A DNA stretch of 64,000 nucleotides, taken from contig CAZZKY010000146.1 of assembly GCA_964654765.1 (NCBI GenBank), positions 14,694 through 78,693 on the forward strand, read 5' to 3'. How positions within the stretch are numbered: position 1 is the stretch's first letter; each line of letters begins with the position of its first letter. Shown piece after piece: positions 45,718 through 63,615 of this stretch. A model generated the notes under the pieces. The model ran no database searches. It saw nothing but the letters and a program-made list of their open reading frames with translations, and had not been told where the DNA came from. A program made the translations under genes and the position numbers. This stretch comes from an uncultured bacterium. Lineage in GTDB: Bacteria; Hydrothermota; Hydrothermia; UBA1063.

Positions 45718-48700
45718 TTTACCACTACTACTTTTTGGATTGTTTTAATGTTTTCGGCTTCTACTTTTATAAAGTATACTCCAGGGGTTGCGTTTTCAAA
45801 AGGAATTTGGATAATAGAGTAGTTTGTGTCTGCTTGGATTTCTGTTTTAGTAAACAGACTGCCATAAATATTGTAAATGGATACTATAAAGGGCCCAGAA
45901 ATTCCCGAATAGATTTTTAATTTGAGAGGTGATCCCACTTTAATAATGTTATTGATAACGAGCTTCTTAAGGTTTAAACTGTCTCTGACGACTGATGAGT
46001 CAATTATATAAGCGAAATATTCTCCTCCCTCGATATTTCCGTTCTGTGTTAAAGGCCTTGGCACTTGCCACTGCAAAGTGCCGCCGTCTTCTGTTGAGTA
46101 GGAACCCACAGCGATGTAAATAACATTTAAATTTCCATAAAGTGAGAGATCAATGACTCCTTCTAAATAACCAAGGTCGCTGAAATAGGAAGCGCATTTA
46201 AAATGGATTGTGTCTGTTATTAAGGTACCTGTTGAATCAAACCACCCTACAAAATCATTGTTGTCTTCATCAGCTAAGAAGAACTGATATCTTCCAACTT
46301 GTCCCAGCTTTGCCCATGGCGCATTTACCATGGTAGAAGGTTCAAAAGATATGAATATGAAATGATCGTTAAAAAAGTATCCTGACTGATTCGCTGAGGC
46401 ATTACCTGCGGATTCAGTAGCAACATAAAGCCTCTTTGTATTTCGATCGTAGTACCCGTAAAGATGCATATTTTCGTTTTGGGCTAATAGGACAGCAACT
46501 CTATCAACGACGCCGTCCATGACAAAATCTTGGAACCCGACGGTGTATGAATAATTCTGGCCATTATTATTGTCCCAGTTCTCATTTTGATAGGGTGAGT
46601 TGTCTTTCGCACGAATAGCAAAATATACCCTTGTACCGGTAGGTTGGGGAGGTAGGTAAACACCGTAAAGTGCAGAATCTGGTTCGTGATTTCCATTATA
46701 ATCCCGACTTTGGCCATCATCGGGAAACATTTGAATATCAGTGTAAGATTGCCAGTTGTTGTTTGTATATCTTACCCAAGCGCCCAATATCCCAGACGGA
46801 TCGAGAATATTACTGGTCACAAGTACACTATCCATTTCGAGTATATTATAATTCGGGCTAAAAGTTGTATTCCAGATTCTTGGACCTTCCCTGTCTCCAG
46901 GACCCGGGACATCTACGTCTGGATCATCTTTTCCAGCGTAAAAGTAAATTGTGTAAGTTCCATTTCTTCCTCCAACTTCTATAAGCTCTGCTCCCGAGGA
47001 CATTTTGCCAAGGAAATTAAAGGTTAATCCAGTCCCTGAAGGATAAAGGAATACGGCTTTAATAGAATCGTAAAGGCTTTCGTATCCACCATAGGTCCAG
47101 CCGTTTTCACTGATCCCGTAGAGAGGCCTCATATTGTATCTGCGAAGAAGCTGTTTATAGAGTGAAGGAGTTACACCAGCCTTTGTCCAGTTGGAGTAGG
47201 TAGAGGAGTAGGTTATTGATACATAATTTTTACCAGTGGTCAGTTTTATTGTTTTAGTCAAGTCGTTCTGAGGAGTTCCGTTCCATGCATAACGCTCTGT
47301 GAAAGTAATAACTGCGGTGTCACCGAAGTAAGACACATTCACGTCAAACCATGAATTTTCACCTTGCGAATCGTTAAAAAGACCAGGGTGTCCCCCATCG
47401 TTATAATCACCTTCACCGTTCCAGTTGCTCATAAGATTTCCCACCACACAAGAAGGATCGGAAGTAAATACTGCAAGGGCTCGACCTCCCCTCCGATCAA
47501 AAATTAAGCACAATTTATCATTGTAAATTGTGTATTCTTTAACTCCATCTGCATCCAAGTCAAGGCTGTCAATTTTTGGGATTTCTTGAAATCTGAGAGA
47601 GTCAAGCCAAATTGCACCGTAACCGAAAATTGCTCCGTATCTTGTGTGGTTCCACAAATTTTTCCCCCAGTAAACGAGTTCTCCGCCAGGGCCAGTATGC
47701 CAAGCGGTTTCATAAAGCATAGAAGACAATGTGAGCCACCCCAATTTTGAAAATTCGTTATCTGGAGTATTCATAAGGTAGTTGTATGCAAATTTCCACA
47801 GATCTTCATAATCACCGTTAATTCCATTTCCATTCAAGTCAGGTCCATTCTCGCATCCCCATCCTACCGCTGATTTGAAATTGTTGTACCAGTTGTCATA
47901 AGTACCACCAGTCCAATCGTGGAGTTCCTGGTAGGTTGCATAATCTATATTTATGATTGGTGGGTCGTTATAGGGATCACTGTCGTAAATTTTATCAACC
48001 CCCCACCATTTTACTGCCTCGGCAATGTGAATGGGTTGTATCCAGTTTTGCTCTTTTATGAACCTTATATTCCAGTCATAACTAGAAGCGGGTGCCCCTG
48101 GCTGACCGAAATCCCAGCCCGCAACCCCTGCTGCCTTTTCCCAGTCGTCGCCATAAATTACTATCTGTTCTTGATCCGGGTCGTTTGCAAGGGAAGATAG
48201 GAGTTGATGTAAAGGATTTGAAGGGTTAGATACGTCATTCCAGACCATCTGATCCCTGGCAACTTTTTGAATAAATACAACAAAGACATAATTGCCTTCA
48301 CTATCAAACATTCTATGAACTTTCCGTGAATTGTTGCAGATGCTACCATCAGGGTAAGTATGAGAATACCACTCGTGGACATTATCATCTAAAACAATAC
48401 AGGGTGCAAGGTATCTACCCTGCGAATCATATTTACCGTATTCTTCGTTTAAGACCTTAATTAAAGAGTAGGGCATAAGGAGTTGTGACTTGAAAACTCG
48501 TTCTGGAACCCATATTACATTCGGATATTCAGGCCATCCAACTCCTTTAATTGAATTCTGATATAATGTTTTTGCGTACCAGAGTGAAAACTTATTTATG
48601 TTTCTATCAACATAAGGCATAATATGTTCTGCATAAGTACCGCCGACGAGGTAAACCAAATCTCCTCGGAGCCTATTAAGTAAACCACGATCGTTTTGCA

Positions 48701-48929
48701 TCCACGTATAAGATTGAGTTAGTGTTCCTGAAATATGTATGTCAATAGGGCAGTTGTAATATTCATGGGTATCGAGGGTGCGGTGGAAAGAGTTACCATT
48801 GTATCCATAGTCCCCAGGTCTCAATGCATAGTAGCCGTTGTCTGAGAAATGCTGGTTTCCATGATGTAAAAAAGCGATTTTTGCAGTTCCACCTAAAAGT
48901 ATAAGTTTAATTATTATTGCAAATAGCAT
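45714..48929 (-). CDS. Large secreted protein (1071 aa) with GH57-like glycoside hydrolase motifs and a T9SS/Por C-terminal sorting domain
   Basis: Signal peptide 'MLFAIIIKLILLGGTAKIAF'. The candidate GH57 conserved regions are 'FLHHGNQHF' (CSR1-like), 'LVGGTYAEHIMPYV' (CSR2-like HPILP), 'VIWVPERVF' (CSR3 with the nucleophile Glu), 'YGDDWEKAAG' (CSR4-like) and 'AEAVKWWG' (CSR5-like). The C-terminal 'FIVSIYNIYGSLF...PGVYFIKVEAENIKTIQKVVVVK' is a T9SS CTD. Confidence 0.55.
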   Translation of the reverse strand: MLFAIIIKLILLGGTAKIAFLHHGNQHFSDNGYYALRPGDYGYNGNSFHRTLDTHEYYNCPIDIHISGTLTQSYTWMQNDRGLLNRLRGDLVYLVGGTYAEHIMPYVDRNINKFSLWYAKTLYQNSIKGVGWPEYPNVIWVPERVFKSQLLMPYSLIKVLNEEYGKYDSQGRYLAPCIVLDDNVHEWYSHTYPDGSICNNSRKVHRMFDSEGNYVFVVFIQKVARDQMVWNDVSNPSNPLHQLLSSLANDPDQEQIVIYGDDWEKAAGVAGWDFGQPGAPASSYDWNIRFIKEQNWIQPIHIAEAVKWWGVDKIYDSDPYNDPPIINIDYATYQELHDWTGGTYDNWYNNFKSAVGWGCENGPDLNGNGINGDYEDLWKFAYNYLMNTPDNEFSKLGWLTLSSMLYETAWHTGPGGELVYWGKNLWNHTRYGAIFGYGAIWLDSLRFQEIPKIDSLDLDADGVKEYTIYNDKLCLIFDRRGGRALAVFTSDPSCVVGNLMSNWNGEGDYNDGGHPGLFNDSQGENSWFDVNVSYFGDTAVITFTERYAWNGTPQNDLTKTIKLTTGKNYVSITYSSTYSNWTKAGVTPSLYKQLLRRYNMRPLYGISENGWTYGGYESLYDSIKAVFLYPSGTGLTFNFLGKMSSGAELIEVGGRNGTYTIYFYAGKDDPDVDVPGPGDREGPRIWNTTFSPNYNILEMDSVLVTSNILDPSGILGAWVRYTNNNWQSYTDIQMFPDDGQSRDYNGNHEPDSALYGVYLPPQPTGTRVYFAIRAKDNSPYQNENWDNNNGQNYSYTVGFQDFVMDGVVDRVAVLLAQNENMHLYGYYDRNTKRLYVATESAGNASANQSGYFFNDHFIFISFEPSTMVNAPWAKLGQVGRYQFFLADEDNNDFVGWFDSTGTLITDTIHFKCASYFSDLGYLEGVIDLSLYGNLNVIYIAVGSYSTEDGGTLQWQVPRPLTQNGNIEGGEYFAYIIDSSVVRDSLNLKKLVINNIIKVGSPLKLKIYSGISGPFIVSIYNIYGSLFTKTEIQADTNYSIIQIPFENATPGVYFIKVEAENIKTIQKVVVVK

Positions 48930-49081
48930 GGAGTTATTATGCTATACCCATTGTAGAAATTCAACCCTTACTGCTTTTTTGAAGTCGTGTGGTATAGGAT
49001 TTCCTTTTTGATCTTCTTTAAAGGAGCTTGCGCTTTTTGATTTTTTAGTTTTATGTTGTAAAATTTTAAACAGGAGGACCT
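48930..49081. promoter_or_regulatory. Promoter/leader region of the V-type ATPase operon
   Basis: A 152-nt intergenic region upstream of the first atp gene with an AGGAGG RBS at its 3' end. The exact -35/-10 positions were not confidently assigned. Confidence 0.3.
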
Positions 49082-49387
49082 ATGGAGGATATCATTAGGA
49101 AGATTAAAGAAGCTGAGAAGGAAGCTGAGAAATTGATTAAAAAGACTGAAGAAGAAGCAAATCTAATAATAAGCGAAGCTCAGAAACTCGCGTCCCAGAA
49201 AATTGAAGAAGCTTTAAACAGGCGGAAAGAGATTCTTCAAACTGTTGATGATGAAGCTCAAAAACTGGCGCAGGAGAAGGTTAAAGAATTAGAAAAAGCG
49301 TTTTCAGCTAAAATTGAGGAACTGAAAAGCAGGGCGGAGAAGAAAGAAAAAACAGCCTTTGAGTTTTTAATAAGTAAACTAATATAA
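49082..49387 (+). CDS. V/A-type ATPase small coiled-coil peripheral-stalk subunit (subunit G/H type)
   Basis: 101 aa, almost entirely a charged Glu/Lys/Ala-rich helix ('KEAEKEAEKLIKKTEEEANLIISEAQKLA'). It is the first gene of the atp operon. Confidence 0.6.
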   Translation: MEDIIRKIKEAEKEAEKLIKKTEEEANLIISEAQKLASQKIEEALNRRKEILQTVDDEAQKLAQEKVKELEKAFSAKIEELKSRAEKKEKTAFEFLISKLI

Positions 49388-49391
49388 ATTT

Positions 49392-51362
49392 ATGGCAAAG
49401 GTAGCTTTAAAGAAAGTAGTTTTTTATGTACATTATTTAGAGAGAGAAAGATTGCTGGAGCGACTTCAGGACGAGGGACTCGTCCATTTCACCGAAATTA
49501 GGCGGGATTTAAAAGATGAATTCGAAGTTACTCATCTTTCTGAGGTTGAATTTGAATCCCATCTCGAGTCTGTATTAACACGGCTTTCTAATGCTATAAA
49601 GTTTCTTGAGAGTTATACCCGTAAAAAATCTTTTATAGAGAGCTTATATGAAGCAAAAAAGCCTGTTGAGAAGAAAGAATTTTTCAGGATAGCGCGCTGT
49701 GTTGAACCTGGTACAATTCTCGTTCAGGTTGAGACCCTTGAGCAAGAGTTGGCTCAGTTAGCCCAAGAAGAGTCCAACCTTTTGGCTCAGAAGAATTTCA
49801 TTTTACCTTGGGTTAATCTGGAATACAATCTTGAAGATATAAAGAGTACCGATGAATTGGTAATGGCGCCGGGTTCACTGCCCAGCGGTAAAATAGCTGA
49901 CCTTGAGGAACTCCCTTTGGCATGTCAACTTGTATATGATGATGGCAAAAGGGCCTATGTTGTTCTAATTTACCACAAAAAGGACGAGGATTTAATTCGA
50001 CCAATTCTACAGGAAAAAGAGTTTGAACCTGTTGAGTTCCACGGTTACCATGGTCGCCCTGCTGAAATTCTAAGAGAATTGGATGAAAAACTTAACATCC
50101 TTGAAGAGGAAAAGAAAAATTTAAAGCAGGCAATTGAAAAAGTTTCCAGGCATTATGATGTACTTACCATATTATACGATTATTATCAATCAGTTTACAA
50201 TAGAGAGTTGATAGACAACCGTGGGCTAAAGACTGCCAGTATCTCGGTTTACCAAGGTTATGTGAGGGAAAGAGAGCTCGCAAGGCTTGAAAAAGTCTTT
50301 TCCGAATTTGAAACTGCCTACTATGAAGTAGTTGAACCAGAAGATGGAGAGGAAGTTCCCGTTGAATTGGAAAACAGGAAGATTTTTAAACCGTTTGAAG
50401 GTCTGGTGAAGATGTATGGGCTTCCCTCTCCCATTGACCCTGACCCTACTGCGATCATAACGCCCTTTTTTATTCTATTTTTTGGGATTTGCTATGGAGA
50501 TGCCGCCTACGGATTACTACTTTCATTACTATCTATCTGGTTTATGAGGAAGCTGAAAATTTCAGCACCCCTTTTATGGATTCTTTTTGCTGGTGGAATC
50601 GCCTCCATGATTTTCGGTGCTATTACAGGCGGGTGGTTCGGGGATTTCTTTGAAAGGGCAAATATAGGTTTTCTCAATGCGTTTCGAAGGAAGATGATGG
50701 TTTTTGACCCAATGAATGATGTGATGACCTTTTTTGCTTTAACGATTGCCCTTGGTTTCATTCAAGTAAATGTGGGACTTGCAGTAAATGCCTACAAGAG
50801 GATTAGAGAGGGAGATACCATTGGGGCCATTTCTCAGCCTATTGCCTGGATAGTTATTTTATCTTCCCTTGTTTATCTTGGTCTTTTTGCAGGTAAGATT
50901 TCAAATCCACTGCTTAATAACACGGTGAAAGCACTGGCACTATTTTTCGTCCTATTAATGGTTTTGTTCAGTTCAAGGCATAGCAGGAATTTTGTTATTC
51001 GTATTGTGAAAGGTGCCTATAATGTTTACAATGGTGTTGGCTTCATAGGGGATCTTCTTTCCTACGTGCGTTTGATGGCTCTTGGCCTAACTTCCTCTGG
51101 AATTGCAATGGCTATCAATATCTTAACTCTGCTCGTTTGGCAAATTCCCATTGCTGGTTATATTCTTGGACCTTTGGTCTTTATTTTTGGGCATTTGTTC
51201 AGCCTTGCGATAAATATTCTCGGTTCAATTGTGCATCCGTTACGTTTGCAATATGTTGAGTTTTTCAAGCAGTTTTATGACGATGGTGGGACACCGTTCC
51301 TTCCTTTGAAGTGGGAGGGAAAATACACTGAAATTGTTGAAATTAAAAAACAGGAGGTGTAA
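49392..51362 (+). CDS. atpI: V-type ATPase subunit I (membrane a-subunit)
   Basis: 656 aa with an N-terminal ~330-aa soluble coiled-coil domain and C-terminal multi-TM domain. The essential Arg lies in 'LSYVRLMALGL'. Confidence 0.9.
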   Translation: MAKVALKKVVFYVHYLERERLLERLQDEGLVHFTEIRRDLKDEFEVTHLSEVEFESHLESVLTRLSNAIKFLESYTRKKSFIESLYEAKKPVEKKEFFRIARCVEPGTILVQVETLEQELAQLAQEESNLLAQKNFILPWVNLEYNLEDIKSTDELVMAPGSLPSGKIADLEELPLACQLVYDDGKRAYVVLIYHKKDEDLIRPILQEKEFEPVEFHGYHGRPAEILRELDEKLNILEEEKKNLKQAIEKVSRHYDVLTILYDYYQSVYNRELIDNRGLKTASISVYQGYVRERELARLEKVFSEFETAYYEVVEPEDGEEVPVELENRKIFKPFEGLVKMYGLPSPIDPDPTAIITPFFILFFGICYGDAAYGLLLSLLSIWFMRKLKISAPLLWILFAGGIASMIFGAITGGWFGDFFERANIGFLNAFRRKMMVFDPMNDVMTFFALTIALGFIQVNVGLAVNAYKRIREGDTIGAISQPIAWIVILSSLVYLGLFAGKISNPLLNNTVKALALFFVLLMVLFSSRHSRNFVIRIVKGAYNVYNGVGFIGDLLSYVRLMALGLTSSGIAMAINILTLLVWQIPIAGYILGPLVFIFGHLFSLAINILGSIVHPLRLQYVEFFKQFYDDGGTPFLPLKWEGKYTEIVEIKKQEV

Positions 51363-51363
51363 A

Positions 51364-51834
51364 TTGACTGCAGGACTTTGGTTATCAATACTTGGTGCTG
51401 GACTGGCGACCTTTTTGCCGGGTCTTGGTTCAGCAATAGGGGTTGGCACGACAGCAAGGGCTGCTGCAGGTGTTCTTTCTGAAGATCCAAGTAAGTTTGG
51501 AAGGTTGTTTCTCCTGGTAGCCCTTCCAGGTACTCAGGGTTTTTACGGATTTATTGCGGCTCTCCTTGTCATAATTAAAGTTGGTCTTTTGGGTGAGGTT
51601 AAGCCTCTTGATTTCATGCAGGGGCTTCAGATTTTCCTTGCCACTATTCCGATAACTTTTCTTGGGTACTTTTCAGCCATACATCAGGGTAAAGTGTGTA
51701 CTGCTGGTGTTGAGATGGCTGCTAAAAAGCCCGAATCTTCCATGCAACCAGTTATTTATGCAGGTTTAGTTGAAACTTACGCTGTTCTTGGCCTTCTTGC
51801 TACTATATTTATTCTACTTGGCATTAAGGTTTAA
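51364..51834 (+). CDS. atpK: V-type ATPase subunit K (proteolipid c-subunit)
   Basis: A TTG start after the AGGAGG RBS ('LTAGLWLSILGAGLATFLPGLGSAIGVG'). It has four TM helices and the ion-binding Glu in 'GLVETYAVLGLL'. The upstream ATG at 51334 overlaps atpI and is less likely. Confidence 0.85.
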   Translation: MTAGLWLSILGAGLATFLPGLGSAIGVGTTARAAAGVLSEDPSKFGRLFLLVALPGTQGFYGFIAALLVIIKVGLLGEVKPLDFMQGLQIFLATIPITFLGYFSAIHQGKVCTAGVEMAAKKPESSMQPVIYAGLVETYAVLGLLATIFILLGIKV

Positions 51835-51845
51835 GGAGGTCGATA

Positions 51846-52421
51846 TTGGGCCTTCAAGAGATACTGAATAAAATTAAAGAAGAGACTGAACTTAAAAGGC
51901 GAGGAATCCTCGATAGAGCAATAGCTGAAAGAGAAAGAATCCTGAAAGAAGCGGATGCTCGAGTGGAGGAAATTCTTCATAAAGCCCAGCAGGAAAAGGA
52001 GAAGCTGGTAATTCAAAAGCTTAATGCACTAATTGCAGATTACGAAATAAAGTCAAATGTTGAAATTGCTAAAATAAAAAGGGAAATTTTGAAAAGGGTT
52101 TACGAAAAGGTCCAGAGGTACATAATCGAAAATAAGCAGATTTACAGCGAGATTGTAAGAAAGCTGTTTGAACTGGTTGAATTGAATGGAGATGAGGAAA
52201 TATTTGTTCAAGAGGGTGAGTCGGTAATCAACAGGGATTTCATAGACCAGATAAACAGGGAAAAGGGTTGGAAATTGAAGCTATCAGAGAATCCTGTCAG
52301 GATCAGTGGTGGATTCATTGCGAAGGGTCCAAATTCGGTTATAGACGCTTCCATAGAGAAACTCATCGAAATTTTACAGGAGGAGACTGAAGTTCATGTG
52401 TCAAACATTTTGTTTTTCTAA
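51846..52421 (+). CDS. atpE: V-type ATPase subunit E (peripheral stalk)
   Basis: 191 aa. It has an N-terminal long charged helix and a C-terminal globular domain, occupies the position after K, and has a TTG start with an AAGGAGG RBS. Confidence 0.8.
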   Translation: MGLQEILNKIKEETELKRRGILDRAIAERERILKEADARVEEILHKAQQEKEKLVIQKLNALIADYEIKSNVEIAKIKREILKRVYEKVQRYIIENKQIYSEIVRKLFELVELNGDEEIFVQEGESVINRDFIDQINREKGWKLKLSENPVRISGGFIAKGPNSVIDASIEKLIEILQEETEVHVSNILFF

Positions 52422-52430
52422 GTAACAGTT

Positions 52431-53450
52431 ATGTTAAAATTACCGTTTAATAGGTATCCTTCTTTTGGAAAAGATGACCCTGAATATGCCTATGCGTGTG
52501 GAAGGATAAAGGCTCTTGAGACAAAACTGCTGGATCGTGTAAGGTTTGAACGCCTTGCAACTTCAAAAGATATAGAGGAACTCTTCAAGATGCTTCAGGA
52601 TACGGAATATTCAAGGTACTTAAACGAAATACACAAGCCTTCAGACTTTGAGATTTTGCTGAAAAAAGAGCTTGAAAGGCTTTTCTCCTTAGTTTCTGAA
52701 TTGTCAGTAGAGCCAGCCCTTGAAAGGGATCTAAGGCTGCCATACGATTTTTTAAATTTGAAAATACTTGTGAAGTCCCTTATTTTCGAAAAGGACTTTT
52801 CGCACGCCTTTTCTAAGTACTCTTATTATCCTGCGACTTTGCTTAAACACGAACTTGAAACTGGCAAAGGTGATATGCTTATGAAAGAAATTTATGATGC
52901 TTATGAGTATGCAATTTCCTCCTATTATGAAACCAGGGAAGTCTTCAGAATTGATTCAGCGGTCGATAATGTGATGTATGGATATTTCGCTAACTCTTCA
53001 TTTTTTGAGTTTTTAAGAATCTACTACAATTTAAATGCAGACCTCAAGAATTTAATATCCTTTTTAAGACTTGAAAGGATGGGAAAACTGCAAGCCCTAA
53101 AACATGTTTTACTGGCTGCAGGATATTTGCCTCAGGAACTCTTCTATAAGGTCCCAGATTTTAACACTTTACTATATGAGATAAGGCATACAGTTTATTA
53201 TCAAGTTCTTCAACCGGGGTACGCACAATATCAGAAGACTGGAAGTTTCGTTAAGATGGAAAAGGATGTTGCCAATTACTTGAACGGCCTTGTTAAAGAG
53301 GCCTCCAAAAAGGATCTTTCGGTGGAAGTATTAATATCCTACTTTTTCAGAAAGAAATACGAGGTCTCCTTACTCAGGATGATTATGGTATCAAAACTTA
53401 ACCAACTCCCCAAAGAAATTGTTATTGAAAGAATTCCGGAGGTATTATGA
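52431..53450 (+). CDS. atpC: V-type ATPase subunit C (archaeal-type C / eukaryotic d)
   Basis: 339 aa, an all-helical protein in the conserved position between E and F. Confidence 0.8.
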   Translation: MLKLPFNRYPSFGKDDPEYAYACGRIKALETKLLDRVRFERLATSKDIEELFKMLQDTEYSRYLNEIHKPSDFEILLKKELERLFSLVSELSVEPALERDLRLPYDFLNLKILVKSLIFEKDFSHAFSKYSYYPATLLKHELETGKGDMLMKEIYDAYEYAISSYYETREVFRIDSAVDNVMYGYFANSSFFEFLRIYYNLNADLKNLISFLRLERMGKLQALKHVLLAAGYLPQELFYKVPDFNTLLYEIRHTVYYQVLQPGYAQYQKTGSFVKMEKDVANYLNGLVKEASKKDLSVEVLISYFFRKKYEVSLLRMIMVSKLNQLPKEIVIERIPEVL

Positions 53451-53755
53451 AAAGGGTGATTTGCCTTGGAAAGTATGAAACGGTATTTCCTCTGAAAGCC
53501 ATAGGAATGGAGTATAGGGTTTGTAACACTGGCGAAGAAGCAAGAGAAGCCCTCAAGAGTCTTATTTCTCAGAATTACGGCTTGATTTTTATAGAGGAGG
53601 ATTATTTTCAAAGTGTTAAGGATATCGTTGATAGTTTGAAAGAGCAGGCATACCCTGCCGTAACTTTCATTCCTGGTGCGGGTGGAAGTACCGGCCAGGC
53701 AAGGGAAAAGTTGAGAGCAATTTTGCTTAGAGCCATTGGAATTGACATCTTTTAG
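53447..53755 (+). CDS. atpF: V-type ATPase subunit F
   Basis: 102 aa. '[20 protein letters not shown]...[11 protein letters not shown]' shows the flavodoxin-like fold typical of F. There is an ATGA overlap with atpC. Confidence 0.8.
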
Positions 53756-53765
53756 GAGGTTGAAA

Positions 53766-55523
53766 ATGAAATCAGGGCGAATCGTTAAAGTTTCAGGTCC
53801 TCTCGTTGTGGCCGAAGGTATGCTTGGTACTAAGATGTACGACGTTGTCTACGTTGGAGAGATGAGACTTTTGGGGGAAGTTATCGAATTGAAAGGCGAT
53901 AGGGCTTATATACAGGTTTATGAAGATACCCACGGGATAGGCCCCGGAGACCCAGTCTACGAAAGCGGTTATCCTCTTATGGTTGAACTTGGTCCTGGAC
54001 TTATAGAGTCTTTCTTTGACGGTATTCAAAGGCCCCTTGATAGAATAAAAGTTTTATCAGGCGATTTTATTTCCCGTGGTCTTCATGTACCTGGATTGCC
54101 CAGAGACAAGAAGTGGTTCTTTGTTCCAAAGGTGAAAAAGGGTGATGTTGTAGAAGAAGGCGATATCATAGGCGAGGTCGATGAGACTACTCTGGTAAAG
54201 CACAAAATAATGGTCCCGCCAGGTATTAACGGTGTTATCGATGATATTAAAGAGGGCGTTTTCACGGTGGAAGATGTGGTTGCGGTAGTTAAGGATAAGA
54301 ATGGAAAACTGCACGAGATTAAGATGATGCAGAAGTGGCCCGTAAGAATCCCAAGGCCCTATAAAGAAAAACATCTACCTGATACTCCCATGTTCACAGG
54401 GCAAAGAGTAATCGACACCTTTTTCCCTATTGCCAAAGGTGGTACTGCATGTGTTCCCGGACCTTTCGGATCAGGTAAAACTGTTATACAGCATCAGCTT
54501 GCCAAGTGGTCTGATGCTAACATTGTCGTTTACATAGGTTGTGGTGAGCGCGGTAATGAGATGACTGATGTATTAATAGAATTCCCAGAGTTGAAAGACC
54601 CTTATTCCGGACAGCCCTTAATGAAAAGGACTGTTTTGATCGCTAACACTTCGAATATGCCTGTAGCGGCGAGAGAGGCTTCCATTTACACCGGGATCAC
54701 TATTGCAGAGTATTTCAGGGATATGGGGTACTCCGTTGCTCTTATGGCCGATTCAACATCAAGATGGGCTGAAGCGATGAGAGAGATTTCAGGGCGTCTT
54801 GAAGAAATGCCAGGAGAAGAAGGTTATCCCGCGTATCTTGCAGCAAGGGTTGCCAGTTTTTACGAAAGGGCTGGGAAAGTCACTTGCCTTGGAAAGGATA
54901 ACAGGGAGGGAACCCTTACTGTGATTGGAGCAGTTTCCCCTCCCGGTGGTGACCTTTCAGATCCAGTGGTTCAGTCCACTCTTAGAGTTGTTAAGGTATT
55001 CTGGAGCCTTGAAGACAAACTCGCCTACAGAAGGCATTTCCCTGCCATCAACTGGCTGACCAGTTATTCACTTTACAGAGAAAGCTTAAGGCCCTATTAT
55101 GAGAAGAATGTGGCTCCAGACTTTTACGATATGGTTCTTGAAGCAATGAAAATTCTTGAGAAGGAAGCGGAACTGGAGGAGATTGTAAGGCTTGTTGGCG
55201 CAGAGGCATTGTCTCAAGATGACCAATTGCTTCTGGAAATAGCAAGAAGTATAAGAGAGGATTTTTTGCATCAAAACGCTTTTCATGAGGTAGACACTTT
55301 CGCATCTATAAGAAAACAGTACCTAATGCTCAAAGTTATATTAAAACTTTACGAAATATGTAAAGACATCATTGCAAAAGGTGAGACAACGGTGAAGGAT
55401 TTAAAGAAGAAACCCGTTTGGGAAAAAGTGGCGAGGATGAAATATTTTTCAGAGGATGAATTGGGTGAAATTGAGAAATTGTTAAAGGAGATTGATCATG
55501 AAGTTAGACAGCCAGTTGGTTAA
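53766..55523 (+). CDS. atpA: V-type ATPase catalytic subunit A
   Basis: The start is '[19 protein letters not shown]' after AGGAGG. Walker A is 'GPFGSGKTV', and the A-subunit non-homologous region is present. The length of 585 aa rules out an intein. Confidence 0.95.
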
Positions 55524-56907
55524 AAAGAGACTATCAAAATTTAACGCTGTTACCAATATTTCAGGTCCTCTAATGCTCGTTGAGGGCATCGGTGGTGTTA
55601 AATACGGTGAGCTTGTAGAAATTGAATTACCTTCTGGTGAGATTAGGAGGGGCGAAGTTTTACAGGTAGAAGAAGATAAGGTTTTATTGCAGGTTTTTGA
55701 GGGTACCTCGGGAATTGACATTCCAAAAACCTCAGTAAGATTTCTTGCAAAAGGTCTTGAAATTAACCTTTCCATTGATATGCTTGGGAGAGTTTTTAAT
55801 GGTCTCGGTCGCCCGATTGATGGTGGTCCCGAAGTAGTTCCTGAAGAGAGAGCAGATATTAATGGGGCACCAATAAACCCTTATGCCAGGGATTATCCAA
55901 ATGAATTTATTCAAACGGGTATTTCTGCAATTGATGGTTTGAACACCCTCGTTAGGGGGCAGAAACTTCCTATCTTCTCCGGCTCTGGTTTACCACATAA
56001 CAGGCTTGCTACGCAGATTGCCAGACAGGCAAAAGTTCGGGGAGAGGGTGAAAGTTTTGCAGTAGTTTTCGCTGCAATGGGTATTACCTTTGAAGAAGCA
56101 GAGTTCTTTATTAAAAGCTTCAGGGATACAGGTGCTATTGGTAGATCAGTCCTTTTTATAAATCTTGCCGATGACCCTGCAATAGAGAGAATAGCAACTC
56201 CAAGAGTTGCTCTAACTACCGCTGAGTACCTTGCATTTAAGAAAGATATGCATGTCCTTGTTATTCTTACCGATATGACAAATTACTGTGAAGCACTGCG
56301 CGAGATTTCTGCGGCGAGAAAGGAAGTTCCGGGAAGAAGAGGATACCCTGGATACCTTTATACTGATCTTGCCACTATTTATGAAAGAGCCGGGCGAATA
56401 AAAGGCAAAAAGGGCTCCATTACCTTAATTCCCATTCTTACTATGCCTGAAGACGATAAGACCCATCCCATACCTGACCTAACGGGCTATATAACGGAAG
56501 GCCAAATCATCCTTTCCAGGGCACTGCACAGGAAAAAGATTTACCCACCCATAGATGTCCTTCCTTCCCTTTCGAGGTTGAAGGATAAGGGAATTGGTAA
56601 AGGTAAAACGAGAGAGGACCATTCCGACGTTTTTAACCAGCTCTTTGCGTGTTATGCAAGGGGTAAAGAAGTTCAGGAATTAGCAGTAATTCTCGGTGAG
56701 GGTGCGTTATCAGAAATTGATAAAATTTATTCTAAATTTGCAGATCTCTTTGAAGAAAAATATGTGGGTCAGGGGGAATTTGAAGACAGGAGCATCGAGG
56801 AGACTCTTGATCTCGGTTGGGAATTACTTTCTATGTTTCCGACTTCTGAGCTTAAAAGAATTAGGCCTCAGTTTATTGAGAAGTATTTGAAGAAAGCAGA
56901 GAGTTGA
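55492..56907 (+). CDS. atpB: V-type ATPase subunit B
   Basis: 471 aa with '[10 protein letters not shown]...[27 protein letters not shown]' and the degenerate P-loop region 'SGSGLPHN'. Confidence 0.95.
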
Positions 56908-56947
56908 AACATATTCTCTGCTCACTAAACTCTGTGAGGATTTTCTA

Positions 56948-58846
56948 ATGCTAAAAATAATCATAACTTTTTTAGTTTTTGGAAAATTTGCGTATATTGT
57001 CGAGCTTGATTCTACTTATGAAGCATACTACGAAAGCGGAATTAGTGAGAGGATTGAATATAGGCGTGTTAAAGTTTTAGAGAATGAGATTCCAGAAGAA
57101 TTGAGGGCTTTAGAGGTCACCTATACTCCCTACTACAATACAGCGGATTTTGAGTTTGTGAGAGTTATAAGAGGTAGGGACACATTATATCTTGATACTG
57201 AGGATATTGTTGACGTTCTTGCCCCACCTGACCTTGGAGGTACTATTTTTTGGGGAGAGAGAAAGAAAATTCTTGAGATCAAGGATTTGAGAAAAGGAGA
57301 TATCCTTGAGAGTAAGGTCAAAAAGTATGGAGGAAACTGGCTTGGCCCCACAGGAGTAGACAAATACAAAACACCTTATCCTGGATATTTTAATCAGATA
57401 GTCCTTTTTGGGGAAGAGGTTCCGGTAAAGAAAAAAGTGTACTTGTTAGAAGAATTACCAGAAAAACCCATTAAATTTGGAATTTTCAATGGGAAAATCA
57501 GACATCGCATCATAACAAAGGATGGAAAAAAGATTCACGTGTTTTATTCTAAAAATATAAGGCCTTACAAGGTGGAATCTCTCTCTCCTTCAATATACGA
57601 TTTTGTGCCCAAGCTCATCGTCACCAACATTCCTTCTTGGAATGAAATGTCTCGCATTGAATTCCACAGAGCTGAGCCCAATGTTACACCTAATGAAACG
57701 ATAAAAATCTTTGCAGATAGTCTTTGTAAGGGCATTATGGATGAGGATGAAAAAATAAGAAGACTATTTTATTTTGTGGCAGATGAAATTCGATACCTTG
57801 GACTCATTGAATCTGAAATGGAGGGCTACGAGCCTCACCCTGCCTGGTTAACTTTGCAGAAAAGATCGGGAGTTTGTAAAGATAAAGCAGCGTTGTTGGT
57901 TGCTCTTCTAAGGGCACAGGGCTTTAAAGCTTATTATGCAACCACTGCCGTGGGGATGAGGGTGGAAAACATTCCTGCGGACCAAACAAATCACGCTATC
58001 GTTGCTATAGAGAGAGGTGAGAATTATGAATTTCTTGATCCTACCATAGGTGCTGGTGGAAGAGACCTTTTGCCTGCATCGGAAGGCGGTCAATCGGTTT
58101 TGGTGTCGAGAGAAGATGGAGACACTTTGAGAACCATTCCTGTTTCGCCGGCTGAAAAGAATAAAGTTTCAATTTATATCTATACAAATTTATCAGGTGA
58201 TACTATTCATTTTGTCTATTTGATGAACTTCGACGGCGCTTTTGATCAGAGATTTCGCAGAGTTGCCCAGAGTGGAAGGCAGAGAATGAAAAACTTTCTT
58301 CATAACATCTTAAGTGAGGTCTATTCAGGCGTTGTTGTTATAGATTCCATAAGATTTACAGACCCCAAAGACTATTCTGACTACTTCAAGGTCTGGATTT
58401 CAGGTAGAGCTTTTAATTCTGTTATCAATACTTCAGATTTCAAACTTTATAGGCCGGTTTGTTCTAAACTTACTTCAAGTTTTGTTTATTTTCTGAGACA
58501 TTTGAATTCCAAAAGAGAGCTGGATTTAGTTATTTCGTCGCCTCAGACCTATGAGGTAAAGGAGTTCGTTCCACTTGCTAAGGTAGTGGAACCTTTAAAA
58601 AAGCACGTTAGTTTTGGTAAAGAACAAGCTTACCTTTTTAACTTTGAAACAGGTTATTTCGTTGACCAAGTTGAGGGGGCAAGGTACTTTTTAAACACAG
58701 AAGAAAGCGGCGGTTGGTATAGTCTTACGACTTCATTCGTATTCAGTAAGAAGAAATATTCTCCCGTTGAAGTTAAATCGATGTTTAAAGATTATCAAAA
58801 TTTGCAGGAAAGTGAGAATATTTGGCTAATTTTTAAAGGAGAATAG
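56948..58846 (+). CDS. Secreted transglutaminase-like cysteine protease-fold protein with a DUF3857-like N-terminal region
   Basis: 632 aa with a hydrophobic N-terminus (signal or anchor). The catalytic triad is intact: Cys in 'SGVCKDKAALLVALLRAQGFKAYYA', His in 'NHAIVAIE' and Asp in 'FLDPT'. Confidence 0.75.
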   Translation: MLKIIITFLVFGKFAYIVELDSTYEAYYESGISERIEYRRVKVLENEIPEELRALEVTYTPYYNTADFEFVRVIRGRDTLYLDTEDIVDVLAPPDLGGTIFWGERKKILEIKDLRKGDILESKVKKYGGNWLGPTGVDKYKTPYPGYFNQIVLFGEEVPVKKKVYLLEELPEKPIKFGIFNGKIRHRIITKDGKKIHVFYSKNIRPYKVESLSPSIYDFVPKLIVTNIPSWNEMSRIEFHRAEPNVTPNETIKIFADSLCKGIMDEDEKIRRLFYFVADEIRYLGLIESEMEGYEPHPAWLTLQKRSGVCKDKAALLVALLRAQGFKAYYATTAVGMRVENIPADQTNHAIVAIERGENYEFLDPTIGAGGRDLLPASEGGQSVLVSREDGDTLRTIPVSPAEKNKVSIYIYTNLSGDTIHFVYLMNFDGAFDQRFRRVAQSGRQRMKNFLHNILSEVYSGVVVIDSIRFTDPKDYSDYFKVWISGRAFNSVINTSDFKLYRPVCSKLTSSFVYFLRHLNSKRELDLVISSPQTYEVKEFVPLAKVVEPLKKHVSFGKEQAYLFNFETGYFVDQVEGARYFLNTEESGGWYSLTTSFVFSKKKYSPVEVKSMFKDYQNLQESENIWLIFKGE

Positions 58847-58849
58847 GAA

Positions 58850-60589
58850 ATGTTGTTCCTTTCCATATTGCTGTTCGGTCAATATATCATAAGTAAAGGT
58901 GACACAGTAAAAGTGAGTTATAAGGAGTACAGACTTGATGATAGCTTGATAATTGCCAAGGAGGAGCGAAAAATACTTATAAGGACTGAAGAGGCAAGAG
59001 AGTATTTTGGCACGATAATATTCCCTTATGACGATTCAACAGAAACTATTGAAGTTCTTTATGCCCGTACCATAACCCCTGAAGGTGACACCATAAATGT
59101 AACAGAGAATGCGATAAACAGGGTAGCAGCCCCCTTAGTTGACTCTTACCCTTTTTTAAAAAATAGAAAAGAACTCCACATTTCATTCCTTTCTATAAAG
59201 CCGGGTTCAACTATTGAATATTGCGTGGAAAGGAAGATAAAGAACTTCGATTATGTGGATGGAATTGAATATTTTAGAAGCATTATTCCTGTTGAATATG
59301 GCAGACTGGTTTTTCATTTTCCTCAAAAGTTAGGCCTAAGGTTTTATAAAGGTAACACCGAAATTTGCAACTTTTCTGAAAACTTAAGGGATTCTGCAGA
59401 TTACAGAGTTTACGAAATTGAATTTAAAAATGTTCCTGAAATTGTTAAAAACGAATGGGGTGGATTTCCTCCTACTCATTTAATCTCGCCTTACGTAATG
59501 TTTACCACGTTTCCTTCTTGGGATTCCCTGATAAGCTATATTTCATTTCATTATAGAAAGCTTGAAGCAATAAAGCCTCAAAAAATGGAACTTAGTAAAC
59601 TTAAGGAGTTAAGTAAGAAGATAAATTCCCCTGAGTGGGAAAATTTTAAGATTCAGGGTTATGTTCCCATAGATAGAAATCGTTCTGCTTCTTTCTATAC
59701 TATGACTTATCCAGAGAAGATTTTGAGAATCTTTTCTTCCTTTGAAGGGCTCTCCTTAGCTTTGGTTCTCCGATACGGATATGATACACTTAATTTAATT
59801 CCTTCCTTGTCTGCCATAGAAAATATAGTTCTCTATGATGGCATCAGATTTCTATTTCCCATTCAGAGTGAAGAGAAGGTACTGAGTACCCCTTACGAAG
59901 GCCATATTGCACTTGTGCTTTCTTCCGATTTGAATAGTTATTCCGTTGAGCAAATAGGGTTCAGGGATGTACTTTCAGAGACGCTTTTTATCGATATACC
60001 GAGAAAGTTAATCTCATTTTCAAGTTGGGTCCCGTCAAGTAGGTTGCTCAGATCCTATTCGTGGTCAAGGAGAAGCAGGGTGGATTTTGAAAATGTGGAG
60101 AAATTCATTCCGCGGTCAAAGTTTTCCATTTATGGGGTAATTAAAGATTTTGCGGCATCTTTGAAATATGAGAATGTTCCTGATAAACCCTATTTTATAT
60201 CAGGGAGGGTCAAGTATAAGTCTATCGGGTCACAAATAGGTAAATATTTGATTCTTTATATTCCTGAAATGCCAAAAATTGAGCCGGAGCTATTTAAAAA
60301 TGGATACTATCTGAATCGTTGGGATGTGTCTAAGAGGAATGTTTGCTTCATAGTAAAAGTGCCTAAGGGCTATAGGGTGAAATATGCACCCCAACCAGTA
60401 TCTTATGAGGACGATAAGGTCTCTTTGATAAGGGATGTGGAGTATAATCGTGGCTTAGTGATAATAAAACAGAGTATGGCTTTTTTGAAAAGATATTTTG
60501 AATACGAAGATTTAGTGAAAATGACTCGTAGTCCCGAATTTGTTAATTTAACGTCGCCTCAAGTGATTATTTTTGAGCGTAAACGTTGA
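58850..60589 (+). CDS. Paralog of the preceding protein lacking the transglutaminase catalytic Cys/His/Asp (probable pseudo-enzyme partner)
   Basis: 579 aa, starting 4 nt after the previous stop, with a hydrophobic N-terminus. Its N-terminal ~150 aa align with the DUF3857-like region of the upstream protein ('TIIFPYDDSTETIEVLYARTITPEGDTINV...RVAAPLVD' versus 'LEVTYTPYYNTADFEFVRVIRGRDTLYLD...DVLAPPD'). It has no GxCxD/NHA/DPT core. Confidence 0.5.
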   Translation: MLFLSILLFGQYIISKGDTVKVSYKEYRLDDSLIIAKEERKILIRTEEAREYFGTIIFPYDDSTETIEVLYARTITPEGDTINVTENAINRVAAPLVDSYPFLKNRKELHISFLSIKPGSTIEYCVERKIKNFDYVDGIEYFRSIIPVEYGRLVFHFPQKLGLRFYKGNTEICNFSENLRDSADYRVYEIEFKNVPEIVKNEWGGFPPTHLISPYVMFTTFPSWDSLISYISFHYRKLEAIKPQKMELSKLKELSKKINSPEWENFKIQGYVPIDRNRSASFYTMTYPEKILRIFSSFEGLSLALVLRYGYDTLNLIPSLSAIENIVLYDGIRFLFPIQSEEKVLSTPYEGHIALVLSSDLNSYSVEQIGFRDVLSETLFIDIPRKLISFSSWVPSSRLLRSYSWSRRSRVDFENVEKFIPRSKFSIYGVIKDFAASLKYENVPDKPYFISGRVKYKSIGSQIGKYLILYIPEMPKIEPELFKNGYYLNRWDVSKRNVCFIVKVPKGYRVKYAPQPVSYEDDKVSLIRDVEYNRGLVIIKQSMAFLKRYFEYEDLVKMTRSPEFVNLTSPQVIIFERKR

Positions 60590-60640
60590 ATTTGAGAAGA
60601 TTTAGCATTACAATCTATTTTGCTATCAAAGGAGTAGGAA

Positions 60641-60961
60641 ATGAATAGTATGCCGATAGAAAAAATCATAGAAGAGTTCAATAAAAAAAATGGTCTGAAG
60701 TTGAAGGTAGAGTTTTTTAAAATTGAAAGTTATCGCTTAATGGTGACTTTTTGCAGTAAAGGTAATCACAACGAAAATAACTTTGATGAGGAGATTGTTG
60801 AATTTGGGAATTTTCTGAGTATTAACGCAGGAACAGACTACGACCTTATTAGACTTTACAGATTGGGAGGTGGTCGTTTTGTTGGAGTTTTTGTTCCCGA
60901 TAGTGATAGAATGAAAGAGGTTATCGATTTTGGGTTTGAGCCCTTTGATATGCTTTTATGA
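60641..60961 (+). CDS. Small cytoplasmic hypothetical protein (106 aa), translationally coupled to the downstream beta-barrel gene
   Basis: No signal peptide. There is an ATGA overlap with the next gene. The weak roadblock/LC7-like pattern 'YDLIRLYRLGGGRFVGVFVPDSD' is speculative. Confidence 0.35.
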   Translation: MNSMPIEKIIEEFNKKNGLKLKVEFFKIESYRLMVTFCSKGNHNENNFDEEIVEFGNFLSINAGTDYDLIRLYRLGGGRFVGVFVPDSDRMKEVIDFGFEPFDMLL

Positions 60962-62298
60962 ATTCAGGTTTAATACTTGCTTTATTTTTAAGTTTTTCGC
61001 TCTATGACCCTGTCTTTCTAAAAGATTATTCCATAGAGTTTCTGGAATTACGGAAAAGCTTTATAAATTTAGGTTCAGACACTTATGTCTGGACTTTTGC
61101 TGATACTTCTGAGGAGAGGCCTTTTATAAAATTTAGCCCGAGTCTAAAGTTAATTAACATAACAAAGGATAGGGTAAATTATACCAATAGTTACATTGAT
61201 CTTGCCTTCGACGCAGGTGTTCGTTTTGACCATTTCCAAGTATATGCGAAAGTTAACTTTTTCAATTTTTTGGCGCCTTACAAGTTTAAGTTTTATGAAC
61301 CTTTGGCTGATAACAGATACAACCTTTATAGTTTTGATGAACAACCTATTGTCGGTGGAACCAGTCTTTTTGATATAAATGTTGAAAAGGCGTACATTCA
61401 GTATTCTAAACATAATTTTGAAATTCTCGTGGGTAGAAACAATGTGATGATAGGAGAGGCACTTCTCTTTAGTGGACTTTGCTATCCGTTAGACCACGTG
61501 TATCGTTTAAGTTTCAGTTTCAGCAATTTCAAAGTTGTCTCTGCTTTCGCAGTTACACAGGATACGTTTCCTGAGAAAACTGTCTCATATCAGACATTAG
61601 AGTGGAAGCCTTTTGACAATTTAACGGTAACCTTTTACGAAGCGGTATCCCATACGGGTAAAGATTATTTCAAATACTTTAATCCTATCTCCCTCTATTA
61701 CGAAAGGCAAAGAAGGGGAACTTCCAATTCGGACAACCTCTTAGGTGGCCTCGCTGTGAGGTTTGATGTTAAGAATAGAATGAGTCTATTTTTTGATTTT
61801 TTAAATGATGACTTTATTGTTTTTAAAGGGGGAACAAGCAAATATGGGGTTTGTGCCGGTTTAGAAACGTCACTTGATACCTATTCTTTTTTAAGATTTT
61901 CTTTTGTGGCAATTCCTCGCTTTACTTACACCCACGTATCTGATACTAACGCATGGCAGATTATGGGCCTACCTCTTGGTTACCCAAGGGGAAATGACCT
62001 TCTGGATTTGTATTTGAGTTATTTAAGAAAGTTGAGAAATGGAGGTTACTTTATTTTCAGGGTTGCCCAGCTCAATAAAGGTGAGGGAACTCTGAAAGAG
62101 CACTGGGAAAATAGTGGATATCCGAAAAATATGCCTTTTCCAACTGGACAGGTCGAGAGGGAGTTGTTTGCAATGCTTGGCTACCAAAAAAGGAGTATAT
62201 ATGTTGGTCTTTTTACAGAGTGGAAATACAGTGAGTCTTCTAATGCCTTTGGAGCGTTCATTTACTTCAAAAATAATGTGTTCAAGCTTGTCTTTTAG
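60958..62298 (+). CDS. Predicted outer-membrane beta-barrel protein (446 aa)
   Basis: N-terminal signal-like 'LILALFLSFSLY'. It has abundant alternating hydrophobic/polar beta-strand patterns ('RLSFSFSNFKVVSAFAV', 'FLRFSFVAIPRFTYTHV') and ends in '...NNVFKLVF', the aromatic C-terminus typical of BAM-dependent OMPs. Confidence 0.45.
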   Translation: MNSGLILALFLSFSLYDPVFLKDYSIEFLELRKSFINLGSDTYVWTFADTSEERPFIKFSPSLKLINITKDRVNYTNSYIDLAFDAGVRFDHFQVYAKVNFFNFLAPYKFKFYEPLADNRYNLYSFDEQPIVGGTSLFDINVEKAYIQYSKHNFEILVGRNNVMIGEALLFSGLCYPLDHVYRLSFSFSNFKVVSAFAVTQDTFPEKTVSYQTLEWKPFDNLTVTFYEAVSHTGKDYFKYFNPISLYYERQRRGTSNSDNLLGGLAVRFDVKNRMSLFFDFLNDDFIVFKGGTSKYGVCAGLETSLDTYSFLRFSFVAIPRFTYTHVSDTNAWQIMGLPLGYPRGNDLLDLYLSYLRKLRNGGYFIFRVAQLNKGEGTLKEHWENSGYPKNMPFPTGQVERELFAMLGYQKRSIYVGLFTEWKYSESSNAFGAFIYFKNNVFKLVF

Positions 62299-62301
62299 TT
62301 A

Positions 62302-63615
62302 ATGGACCCTGTTCTCCTCGAAAAATTTATTAGAGCGGTGAAGAAATATAATATGATTGTGAAAGGAGATAGGTTGCTGGTTGGCTTTTCTGGCGGTCCT
62401 GACTCGGTTTTTCTTGTTGAAATACTAAAGGATGTGGAGAGTTATTTAGGAATAAGCTTCAGTTGTTTGCATATTAATCACATGCTTAGGGGTGAGGAAT
62501 CTTTTCGAGATGAAGTTTTTTGTAAAAGGTTTTGCGAAGAGAGAAAAATAGAATTGTTCGTCGAGAGGGTTGATGTAAAGAATTTAAGAAAGGAGGGAGA
62601 ATCCATTGAAGAGGTTGCCAGAAGGGTAAGATATGAAAAGTATGAGGATTATTTGCAAAGGTATGGTTTTAATAGAATTGTTCTTGCTCACACTGCCTCC
62701 GATTCGGTTGAAACTTTTCTTATCAATCTGTTGAGAGGTACGGGGGTTATTGGACTTAAGGGCATCCCACCGGTGCGGGGAAACATCATACGGCCACTAA
62801 TATATATTACGCGGAAAGAAATAGAGGATTATCTTGATGCGAAAGGGGTTTCTTATGTGATAGATTCCTCTAATCTTGATACTAAATTTTTGCGTAATCG
62901 TATAAGATTGGATCTTTTGCCATATTTGGAGGATATAAGACCGGGTGCCTTTGAGAAAATAAGAGAAACCAGTGAAATTATGGTGGATTTTGCCGATTTT
63001 CTTGAAAGAGAACTGGAAAGGATGGAAAAGGATGTTCTTAAAAACACTTACTCTTGGGCGATTTTAATTGATTATTCGAAGTTTAGAAATTATCATTGTT
63101 TATTGCAAAAACTTTTCATTCAGCGGAGGTTAAATTTGACCTATCAAGATGTTGAAAACATTGAGGGTTTAATTGTTTTAGGAAAGTCCGGGAAAGTTAA
63201 AGGATTTCAAGTGTTTAGTAGCGGAGGTGAGATCTTCATAGCTCCTGAGGATAAGGCTTTTCCGGAAGTACAAATTAATTTAGAAAGTTTGCCTTTGATG
63301 GTAGAAGAATTTAATTTCATGGTAAAACCTTCTGCAGAATTTTCTGAAAACCTCTTTGTGATGGGGTTTAATGAAAATGATTTCCCGGTTAAAATCAGAG
63401 CTTGGAGACCGGGGGATATTTACATGGGTAAAAAACTTTCTGATCTTTTTGGTTCCAGAAGGATTAACATCTGGAGAAGGAGATATTACCCGGTTTTTGA
63501 GAGTAAAGGGCAAATTGTTTGGGTTCCTGGATTTAGGATGGATAAAGTAAGAGGTAGAATCTTCTTGGAGGTAAGAAAAATTGATGAGGGAAAGTACTGG
63601 ATTTTTGATAACTGA
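62302..63615 (+). CDS. tilS: tRNA(Ile)-lysidine synthetase
   Basis: 437 aa with the PP-loop 'LLVGFSGGPDSVFL', and it lies immediately upstream of hpt in the conserved tilS-hpt arrangement. Confidence 0.9.
   Translation: MDPVLLEKFIRAVKKYNMIVKGDRLLVGFSGGPDSVFLVEILKDVESYLGISFSCLHINHMLRGEESFRDEVFCKRFCEERKIELFVERVDVKNLRKEGESIEEVARRVRYEKYEDYLQRYGFNRIVLAHTASDSVETFLINLLRGTGVIGLKGIPPVRGNIIRPLIYITRKEIEDYLDAKGVSYVIDSSNLDTKFLRNRIRLDLLPYLEDIRPGAFEKIRETSEIMVDFADFLERELERMEKDVLKNTYSWAILIDYSKFRNYHCLLQKLFIQRRLNLTYQDVENIEGLIVLGKSGKVKGFQVFSSGGEIFIAPEDKAFPEVQINLESLPLMVEEFNFMVKPSAEFSENLFVMGFNENDFPVKIRAWRPGDIYMGKKLSDLFGSRRINIWRRRYYPVFESKGQIVWVPGFRMDKVRGRIFLEVRKIDEGKYWIFDN

Follow-up and report, generated by a model that had tools for sequence, protein, structure and literature searches.

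An apparent four-gene cluster behind a V-type ATPase operon in a Hydrothermota genome is probably two independent gene units

Gene content of the region

The region considered here lies in a stretch of 64,000 nucleotides (nt) from an uncultured bacterium of the Hydrothermota (lineage UBA1063), positions 14,694 to 78,693 of contig CAZZKY010000146.1 in assembly GCA_964654765.1, and this whole stretch is referred to below as the window. Directly behind a V-type ATPase operon it carries four genes, here called P1 to P4, which encode an enzyme of the transglutaminase-like type, an inactive paralog of that enzyme, a small cytosolic protein and an outer-membrane beta-barrel. These assignments, made one gene at a time in a first-pass annotation, have held. 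The same annotation took the four genes for a dedicated envelope module with its own outer-membrane channel, and this has not survived comparison with related genomes. It is now thought, with a probability of about three in four, that the interval consists of two independent units lying head to tail within a long string of same-strand genes in a compact WOR-3/Hydrothermota genome.

All four genes are on the forward strand, and the six-frame list of open reading frames (ORFs) gave exactly the coordinates and lengths first assigned to them: P1 at 56948-58846 (632 amino acids, aa), P2 at 58850-60589 (579 aa), P3 at 60641-60961 (106 aa) and P4 at 60958-62298 (446 aa). They are regarded as real genes because conserved orthologs were found for every one of them. 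The named homologs of the window proteins come from metagenome-assembled genomes of candidate division WOR-3/Candidatus Hydrothermae (Hydrothermota). The ATPase operon ends with atpB at 56907, which leaves the 40-nt gap ahead of P1 that had been reported. The genes had been described as joined by 4-nt gaps or overlaps; this was accurate for P3 and P4, whose ATGA overlap was confirmed, and close to the mark for P1 and P2, which are 3 nt apart, but it did not apply to P2 and P3, which are separated by 51 nt with a promoter-like element inside the gap. Beyond P4 lies tilS, encoding tRNA lysidine synthetase (62302-63615, forward strand), the most widely kept neighbour of P4. As tilS begins only 3 nt past P4, and is coupled to it as tightly as the genes inside the supposed cluster are to each other, the right boundary at 62298 is arbitrary.

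The tight coupling of the genes had itself been offered as a sign of a functional module. However, the window is ~97% coding, the median gap between neighbours on the same strand is -4 nt and 42 of the 45 such gaps are of 51 nt or less, a figure matched in the remainder of the window (30 of 33). Tight junctions are uninformative on functional coupling because such spacing is the norm genome-wide. The gaps between atpB and P1 and between P2 and P3 are among the six largest same-strand gaps in the window.

Gene order in related genomes

Related loci were mapped by phmmer with the window proteins, and 39 were obtained from exact-protein look-ups, a genome scan with an alignment of P4 and a metagenome scan with an alignment of P1. 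In the closest clade the full array atpIKECFAB-(±BioY)-P1-P2-P3-P4-tilS-hpt-ftsH is present (L005, L006/7/14, L008, L015, L016/26, L027-29 and L030), P4 is 53-87% identical and the synteny often runs on into TetR-OEP-RND; the genomes with the full array are broadly collinear. A different arrangement, plsY-gpsA-P3-P4-tilS-hpt-ftsH, was found in UBA1063/GCA_017999445 (L001-4, L013), with no atp genes and neither P1 nor P2 in the ~10 kb flanking P4 on each side. P4-tilS-hpt-ftsH also occurs without P3 (L009/10, L017, L018), and in L012 the contig is cut behind P4, where only the start of tilS is left. In L011 and L019-25 P4 stands without tilS, and the neighbours found there were lpxB (twice), an amidase, CysRS, RlmN and a hydrolase of the metallo-beta-lactamase (MBL) fold.

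The separation is seen from the other side as well. P1 and P2 occur without P3, P4 or tilS in L031-L037, where they are always adjacent and overlapping and P1 is 40-46% identical to that of the window. Their neighbours, annotated for L032, L034 and L035, were a glycosyltransferase (GT4), a Kelch protein and a prolyl oligopeptidase, or else MntP and a convergent V-ATPase operon, and in L031 and L036 the pair is likewise present. As these four locus patterns separate them, the conserved units are [P1-P2] and [(P3-)P4-tilS-hpt-ftsH]. Co-conservation of all four genes, on which the first-pass annotation had itself staked the single module, was found in one clade only, and elsewhere the two pairs go their own ways.

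The string tilS-hpt-ftsH is a conserved housekeeping cluster in many bacteria, and it has the same order here. It lies directly 3' of P4 in every locus of the window clade, and also in several WOR-3 lineages at greater distance. What appears to be WOR-3-specific is the gene for a Wzi-like outer-membrane protein in front of it, accompanied in one sub-clade by P3, under a common promoter-like element.

The junction between atpB and P1 is less regular. A gene for the biotin transporter BioY is inserted there in one sub-clade (L008, 5454-6044, with equivalent positions in L015, L016 and L026), and the junction is on that account considered unconstrained.

Putative promoters and the end of atpB

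The gap between P2 and P3 contains a sigma70-like promoter element, TTGAAT-17-TACAAT (60586-60614, forward strand), whose -35 hexamer shares nucleotides with the stop codon of P2. The pattern TTGAwT-N17-TAnAAT was found upstream of P3 in all 12 loci compared, and the alignment revealed that the two hexamers are kept while the spacer and flanks diverge. The element is also present in L002 and L013, in which it is gpsA that lies upstream. Its background frequency in the window, both strands counted, is 0.37 per kb. A related sigma70-like element, TTGATT-16-TAAAAT, is found ahead of the first V-ATPase gene (49037-49064, forward strand), but most loci have no such element upstream of P1. On this pattern of conservation P3-P4-tilS and the genes that follow probably have a promoter of their own.

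The stop codon of atpB is spanned by a hairpin (56896-56938, forward strand), after which come a small stem, CTCAC-N8-GTGAG, and GATTTTCT; behind this second stem stands GAUUUUCU, a short U-rich run. The 61 nt over the stop fold at -17.4 kcal/mol, with a z of -2.9 against shuffled sequences. The consensus of four close relatives folds weakly, at -5.4 kcal/mol with a single compensatory pair, and a conserved RNA element at this site is not claimed. The hairpin is possibly a partial terminator, an attenuator or a stabiliser, and not a canonical terminator. It had been stated that no terminator hairpin follows atpB; this passed over the structure straddling the stop, though a canonical terminator is indeed absent.

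P1 and P2: a predicted enzyme and its inactive paralog

Pfam searches with P1 returned DUF3857 (E 4.9e-18) and Transglut_core (PF01841, E 4.8e-11), the latter with 43.3 bits over residues 256-340 against a gathering score of 23, and the distant orthologs in L032, L034 and L035 likewise match PF01841 above threshold. Alignment with MAFFT of 12 P1 and 11 P2 orthologs showed an intact catalytic triad in P1, Cys310-His349-Asp364, set in the motifs GVCKDK, QTNHAIV and YLDPT, which are invariant in 12 of 12 P1 orthologs. Together with the hydropathy of the N-terminus, these results uphold the description of P1 as an exported protein with a DUF3857 region and an intact transglutaminase-like Cys-His-Asp core.

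P2 matched DUF3857 alone (E 5.9e-21), and PF01841 was not detected in the Pfam scan of the window P2 or its orthologs. The motifs GVCKD, NHAIV and LDPT are present in P1 and not in P2, as had been noted. The claim that every catalytic residue is missing was correct for the cysteine and histidine, replaced in 11 of 11 orthologs, but too broad for the aspartate, which some orthologs retain sporadically. P2 had also been called a dead paralog of the N-terminal region of P1. It is a dead paralog, but its homology is not confined to that region: the profile-profile alignment of the two families by hhalign spans 542 columns (probability 97.4%, E 1.1e-11), so that P2 is a full-length paralog of P1 with a degenerate core. 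Pairwise BLASTP between the two was barely significant (E 0.007), and the homology of P2 to the P1 core region is visible by profile-profile alignment only.

P2 has diverged at about twice the rate of P1, with 17-23% identity where P1 holds 40-46%. Nevertheless its ORF (534-614 aa) is unbroken in each of the 11 lineages examined, even where identity has fallen to 17%, is always directly downstream of P1 in them, and keeps a recognisable DUF3857 (E 1e-5 to 1e-27). The pair is thus a genuinely conserved two-gene enzyme/pseudo-enzyme unit, much as first proposed. One P1 ortholog departs from this pattern: in L026 (8100-9994; GCA_017880035.1, a 1.69-Mb contig) it is broken into three ORF pieces in different frames next to intact P2, P3 and P4, which is either a real pseudogene or the result of indel errors in the assembly.

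N-terminal hydrophobic segments were seen by hydropathy in all orthologs of P1, P2 and P4, and a lipobox-like Cys occurs in two of the distant P1 orthologs. Searches of PDB sequences with P1 alone and with a P1 profile gave no meaningful matches, and the P2 profile matched 3kd4, a 'putative protease' from Parabacteroides distasonis (E 5.7e-5). The closest known proteins are the 3kd4-like DUF3857/transglutaminase/DUF3858 proteins of the FCB group (PF12969, PF01841, PF12970), which have the N-terminal DUF3857 in common with both P1 and P2, and the Transglut_core with Cys-His-Asp in common with P1; the difference is that here there is a conserved tandem of an active and an inactive member. A more distant protein of DUF3857-TPR-transglutaminase type (P0026) has no dead partner. 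DUF3858 was not found by Pfam in the window P1 or P2, and reached only sub-threshold scores at the C-terminus of the P2 orthologs in L031 and L036 (E 0.009-0.018, 15.7-16.6 bits, gathering score 27). NCBIfam gave no match for any of P1, P2, P3 or P4. A literature search on DUF3857 found no functional work, only two mentions in proteomics.

P1 may be an exported papain-like cysteine peptidase or transamidase of the Cys-His-Asp type, its specificity probably coming from the DUF3857 and C-terminal domains. P2 would most likely be a non-catalytic partner serving in substrate binding, scaffolding or regulation, presumably coupled to P1 in translation across the 3-nt gap or 4-nt overlap, and the two would act jointly in the periplasm or at the cell surface.

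P4: a probable divergent Wzi-family barrel

P4 (60958-62298) is described as a divergent member of the Wzi family, a barrel of ~18 strands that has a hydrophobic segment and one helix at its N-terminus and ends in Phe. The exact-sequence look-up of P4 returned no record, though a 100% identical cluster representative exists (P0001). The window protein itself had no match at E<=1 in Pfam, PF14052 (Caps_assemb_Wzi) included, but 11 of 15 members of its family did match PF14052 at that level. Three more distant relatives, which phmmer links to P4 with E 1e-38 to 1e-45, passed the gathering score of 30.1: L025 (77.4 bits), P0015 (39.8) and L022 (30.2). The affinity to Wzi, hinted at in the first reading of the sequence, is borne out through these relatives. 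A profile of the family against PDB sequences gave no meaningful match and did not reach 2ynk, the Wzi structure.

A model made with AF2 from the alignment of the family (predicted local distance difference test score, pLDDT, 73.5; predicted template modelling score, pTM, 0.77) has a large beta-barrel after one helix, in agreement with the 18-stranded barrel of Wzi, and Foldseek with this model returned generic 16-18-stranded barrels. The C-terminal Phe is nearly invariant across the family. Both observations agree with the initial view of the fourth gene product as an outer-membrane protein.

The prototype, Wzi, is a sealed lectin of 18 strands whose periplasmic end is plugged by a bundle of three helices, and all Wzi-containing organisms have Wza (PMC3791409). 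With Wzi of group 1 capsule assembly in E. coli and Klebsiella (PF14052, PDB 2ynk) P4 shares the barrel, the preceding helix and the C-terminal aromatic residue, but Wzi has a three-helix bundle where P4 has one helix. Genes for Wza, Wzc or Wzy were not found near P4 in any locus, nor in the roughly half of the window ORFs of at least 120 aa that were scanned, and the neighbours of P4, unlike those of the capsule protein, are tilS-hpt-ftsH, lpxB and other housekeeping genes. P4 is filed as a divergent member of the family, and not as a capsule-assembly protein or as a channel for P1 and P2. It may be a housekeeping envelope protein found throughout the phylum and serve as a glycan-binding anchor, or else be a barrel that is closed or narrow.

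The P4-family gene and lpxB, encoding lipid-A disaccharide synthase, are divergent neighbours in two independent lineages (L012, 2613-3707; L017, 1372-2526), and in L001-4 an lpxD-lpxC/fabZ-lpxA cluster is found within 5 kb. These lpx neighbours hint at a link to outer-membrane biogenesis.

Elsewhere in the window, ~52 kb upstream of the four genes, there is a small cluster for dTDP-rhamnose/polysaccharide biosynthesis (2482-5088, reverse strand; Polysacc_synt_2, RmlD, RmlC); genes for export were not seen. Two proteins of about 1000 aa (45714-48929 and 12406-15432, both reverse strand) have the C-terminal sorting domains of the type IX secretion system (Por_Secre_tail), one of them together with a CBM21-like starch-binding module, and because of these two proteins the organism probably has such a system. 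A role for P4 as a component of type IX secretion or as a polysaccharide exporter was considered and finds no support in the gene context.

P3: a small cytosolic protein

P3 has no N-terminal hydrophobic segment by hydropathy, in keeping with the cytosolic location first given to it. A word-index search gave two matches and a search of 1.84 billion proteins three cluster representatives, and P3 is an orphan-like, clade-restricted family with no annotated relative; Pfam gave no match at E<=1. Positional orthologs are 40-81% identical and have an invariant C-terminal motif, DRxKEVxDFGFxPFDxxL. In the model (pLDDT 77.9, pTM 0.70) the chain forms an alpha-beta-beta-alpha-beta-beta-alpha sandwich and leaves a tail that is predicted to be disordered. 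That tail, residues 96-106, has the invariant sequence DFGFxPFDLLL and looks like a docking peptide.

The predicted fold resembles that of BcsD, the cellulose synthase operon protein D (PDB 7zzy, 8poc; PMC9757748). However, the identity is 10-12%, BcsD has 138-154 aa where P3 has 106, and P3 has a distinct conserved C-terminal tail. P3 is not counted as a member of the BcsD family, and no bcs genes were found nearby. It may be a recently evolved small cytosolic partner of P4, coupled to it in translation.

The V-ATPase operon

The V-type ATPase operon (49082-56907, forward strand) encodes a G/H-like protein of 101 aa followed by subunits I, K, E, C, F, A and B, with no D. The absence of atpD after atpB, noticed at the outset, was confirmed: no D subunit follows atpB in the window or in any related locus (L005, L006, L008, L016, L026-L030, L032/33), no D-like ORF was found among ORFs of 187-232 aa, and phmmer and motif searches of the 64-kb window and ~600 kb of fetched loci, made with a Thermus D sequence as the query, found no homolog, which is a soft negative. 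Subunit D is presumably encoded elsewhere, or is very divergent. P1 to P4 were compared with the V-ATPase families, D in particular, and none matched. The idea that P3 or a nearby ORF replaces atpD was rejected on the same two grounds, the lack of any V-ATPase family match and of any D-like ORF. In L032 (3737-5935) and L033 the V-ATPase operon is convergent with P1-P2, with MntP between them, and the neighbourhood of the two has thus outlasted an inversion.

Two units or one module

The reading preferred here is that of two units, the first P1-P2 and the second P3-P4-tilS, extended in related loci by hpt and ftsH. P1-P2, P4 and P3 add new members to families that are known but have been little characterised. 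In the window clade the first unit would probably owe its transcription to read-through out of the V-ATPase operon, past the hairpin at the atpB stop, which is proposed because P1-P2 has no consensus promoter of its own in this clade. The second would be driven by the conserved sigma70-like promoter in the P2/P3 gap.

Several points weigh against this reading and what is built on it. The four genes are contiguous in at least seven lineages of the closest clade, so that read-through from P2 into P3 is possible, and the break between P2 and P3 as seen from the P3 side comes from one lineage only, with flanks of ~10 kb. The function of the promoter-like element is inferred from its conservation. 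The membership of P4 in the Wzi family is transitive, by way of its relatives and not by a match of its own, and its model has at the N-terminus a single helix (residues 26-38, of moderate confidence) and no three-helix bundle. Hydropathy was the only basis for calling signal peptides. The physical interaction of P1 and P2, their reaction and their substrate are all deduced from the sequences.

A more ambitious account has P1-P2 as an obligate heterodimer captured into the V-ATPase transcript at the usual slot of atpD, and separately has the Wzi-like barrel and the BcsD-fold P3 as a phylum-specific device co-expressed with tilS-hpt-ftsH. This is considered unlikely. Were the capture of P1-P2 real, an envelope-remodelling protease or transamidase would be coupled to the expression of an ion pump.

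It is also improbable, and somewhat more so, that P1-P2 is functionally tied to the V-ATPase, whether in its assembly, turnover or regulation or in an envelope process powered by the pump, a link that would account for the place of the pair behind atpB. The two are adjacent in two arrangements, in tandem in the window clade, sometimes with BioY inserted, and convergently in L032/L033, where ~750 nt and MntP separate them, and the lack of a consensus promoter ahead of P1 in most loci suggests co-transcription with atp. However, the convergent orientation in L032/33 rules out co-transcription there, and no atp genes lie within 10 kb of P1-P2 in L035 (a 172-kb contig) or nearby in L034. The BioY insertion shows the atpB-P1 junction to be unconstrained, and P1 and P2 have N-termini of the export type, unlike the V1 sector, which lies in the cytoplasm. 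The adjacency is accounted for just as well by residual synteny in small genomes.

The dedicated module of the first-pass annotation, with P1 as enzyme, P2 as regulator, P3 as cytosolic factor and P4 as a private channel, all appended to the V-ATPase operon, is very improbable. It can call on the contiguity of P1 to P4 on one strand in the window and at least seven lineages (L005, L006/14, L008, L015, L016/26, L027-29, L030), and on the N-terminal hydrophobic segments by which P1, P2 and P4 all seem targeted to the envelope. Against this, P1-P2 and P3-P4 occur apart in other lineages, in both directions, and the most conserved partner of P4 is tilS-hpt-ftsH and not P1 or P2. The conserved promoter-like element between P2 and P3 contradicts a single module, and the synteny of the clade reaches from atpI to ftsH, far past the four genes, with tight spacing throughout the genome.

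Least probable of all is that P2 is a decaying duplicate without a role of its own and that P1 works alone, for although P2 evolves ~2 times as fast as P1 and has lost its catalytic residues, such a duplicate would not have remained open and in position right after P1, with DUF3857 and full-length collinearity retained, over so much divergence.

Implications

The analysis carries a caution for method: in a genome that is ~97% coding, junctions of 4 nt and a common strand do not define functional modules. The pattern TTGAwT-N16/17-TAnAAT is a candidate for a working promoter consensus in this WOR-3 lineage. WOR-3/Hydrothermota have one cultured representative only (PMC12285271). The outer-membrane barrel of the Wzi family, seen across the WOR-3/Hydrothermota loci that were recovered, is a sound annotation for the phylum, and the conserved active/inactive pair of DUF3857 transglutaminase-like proteins is a second. 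For DUF3857, a family of unassigned function, the conserved enzyme/pseudo-enzyme pair offers a tractable entry point.

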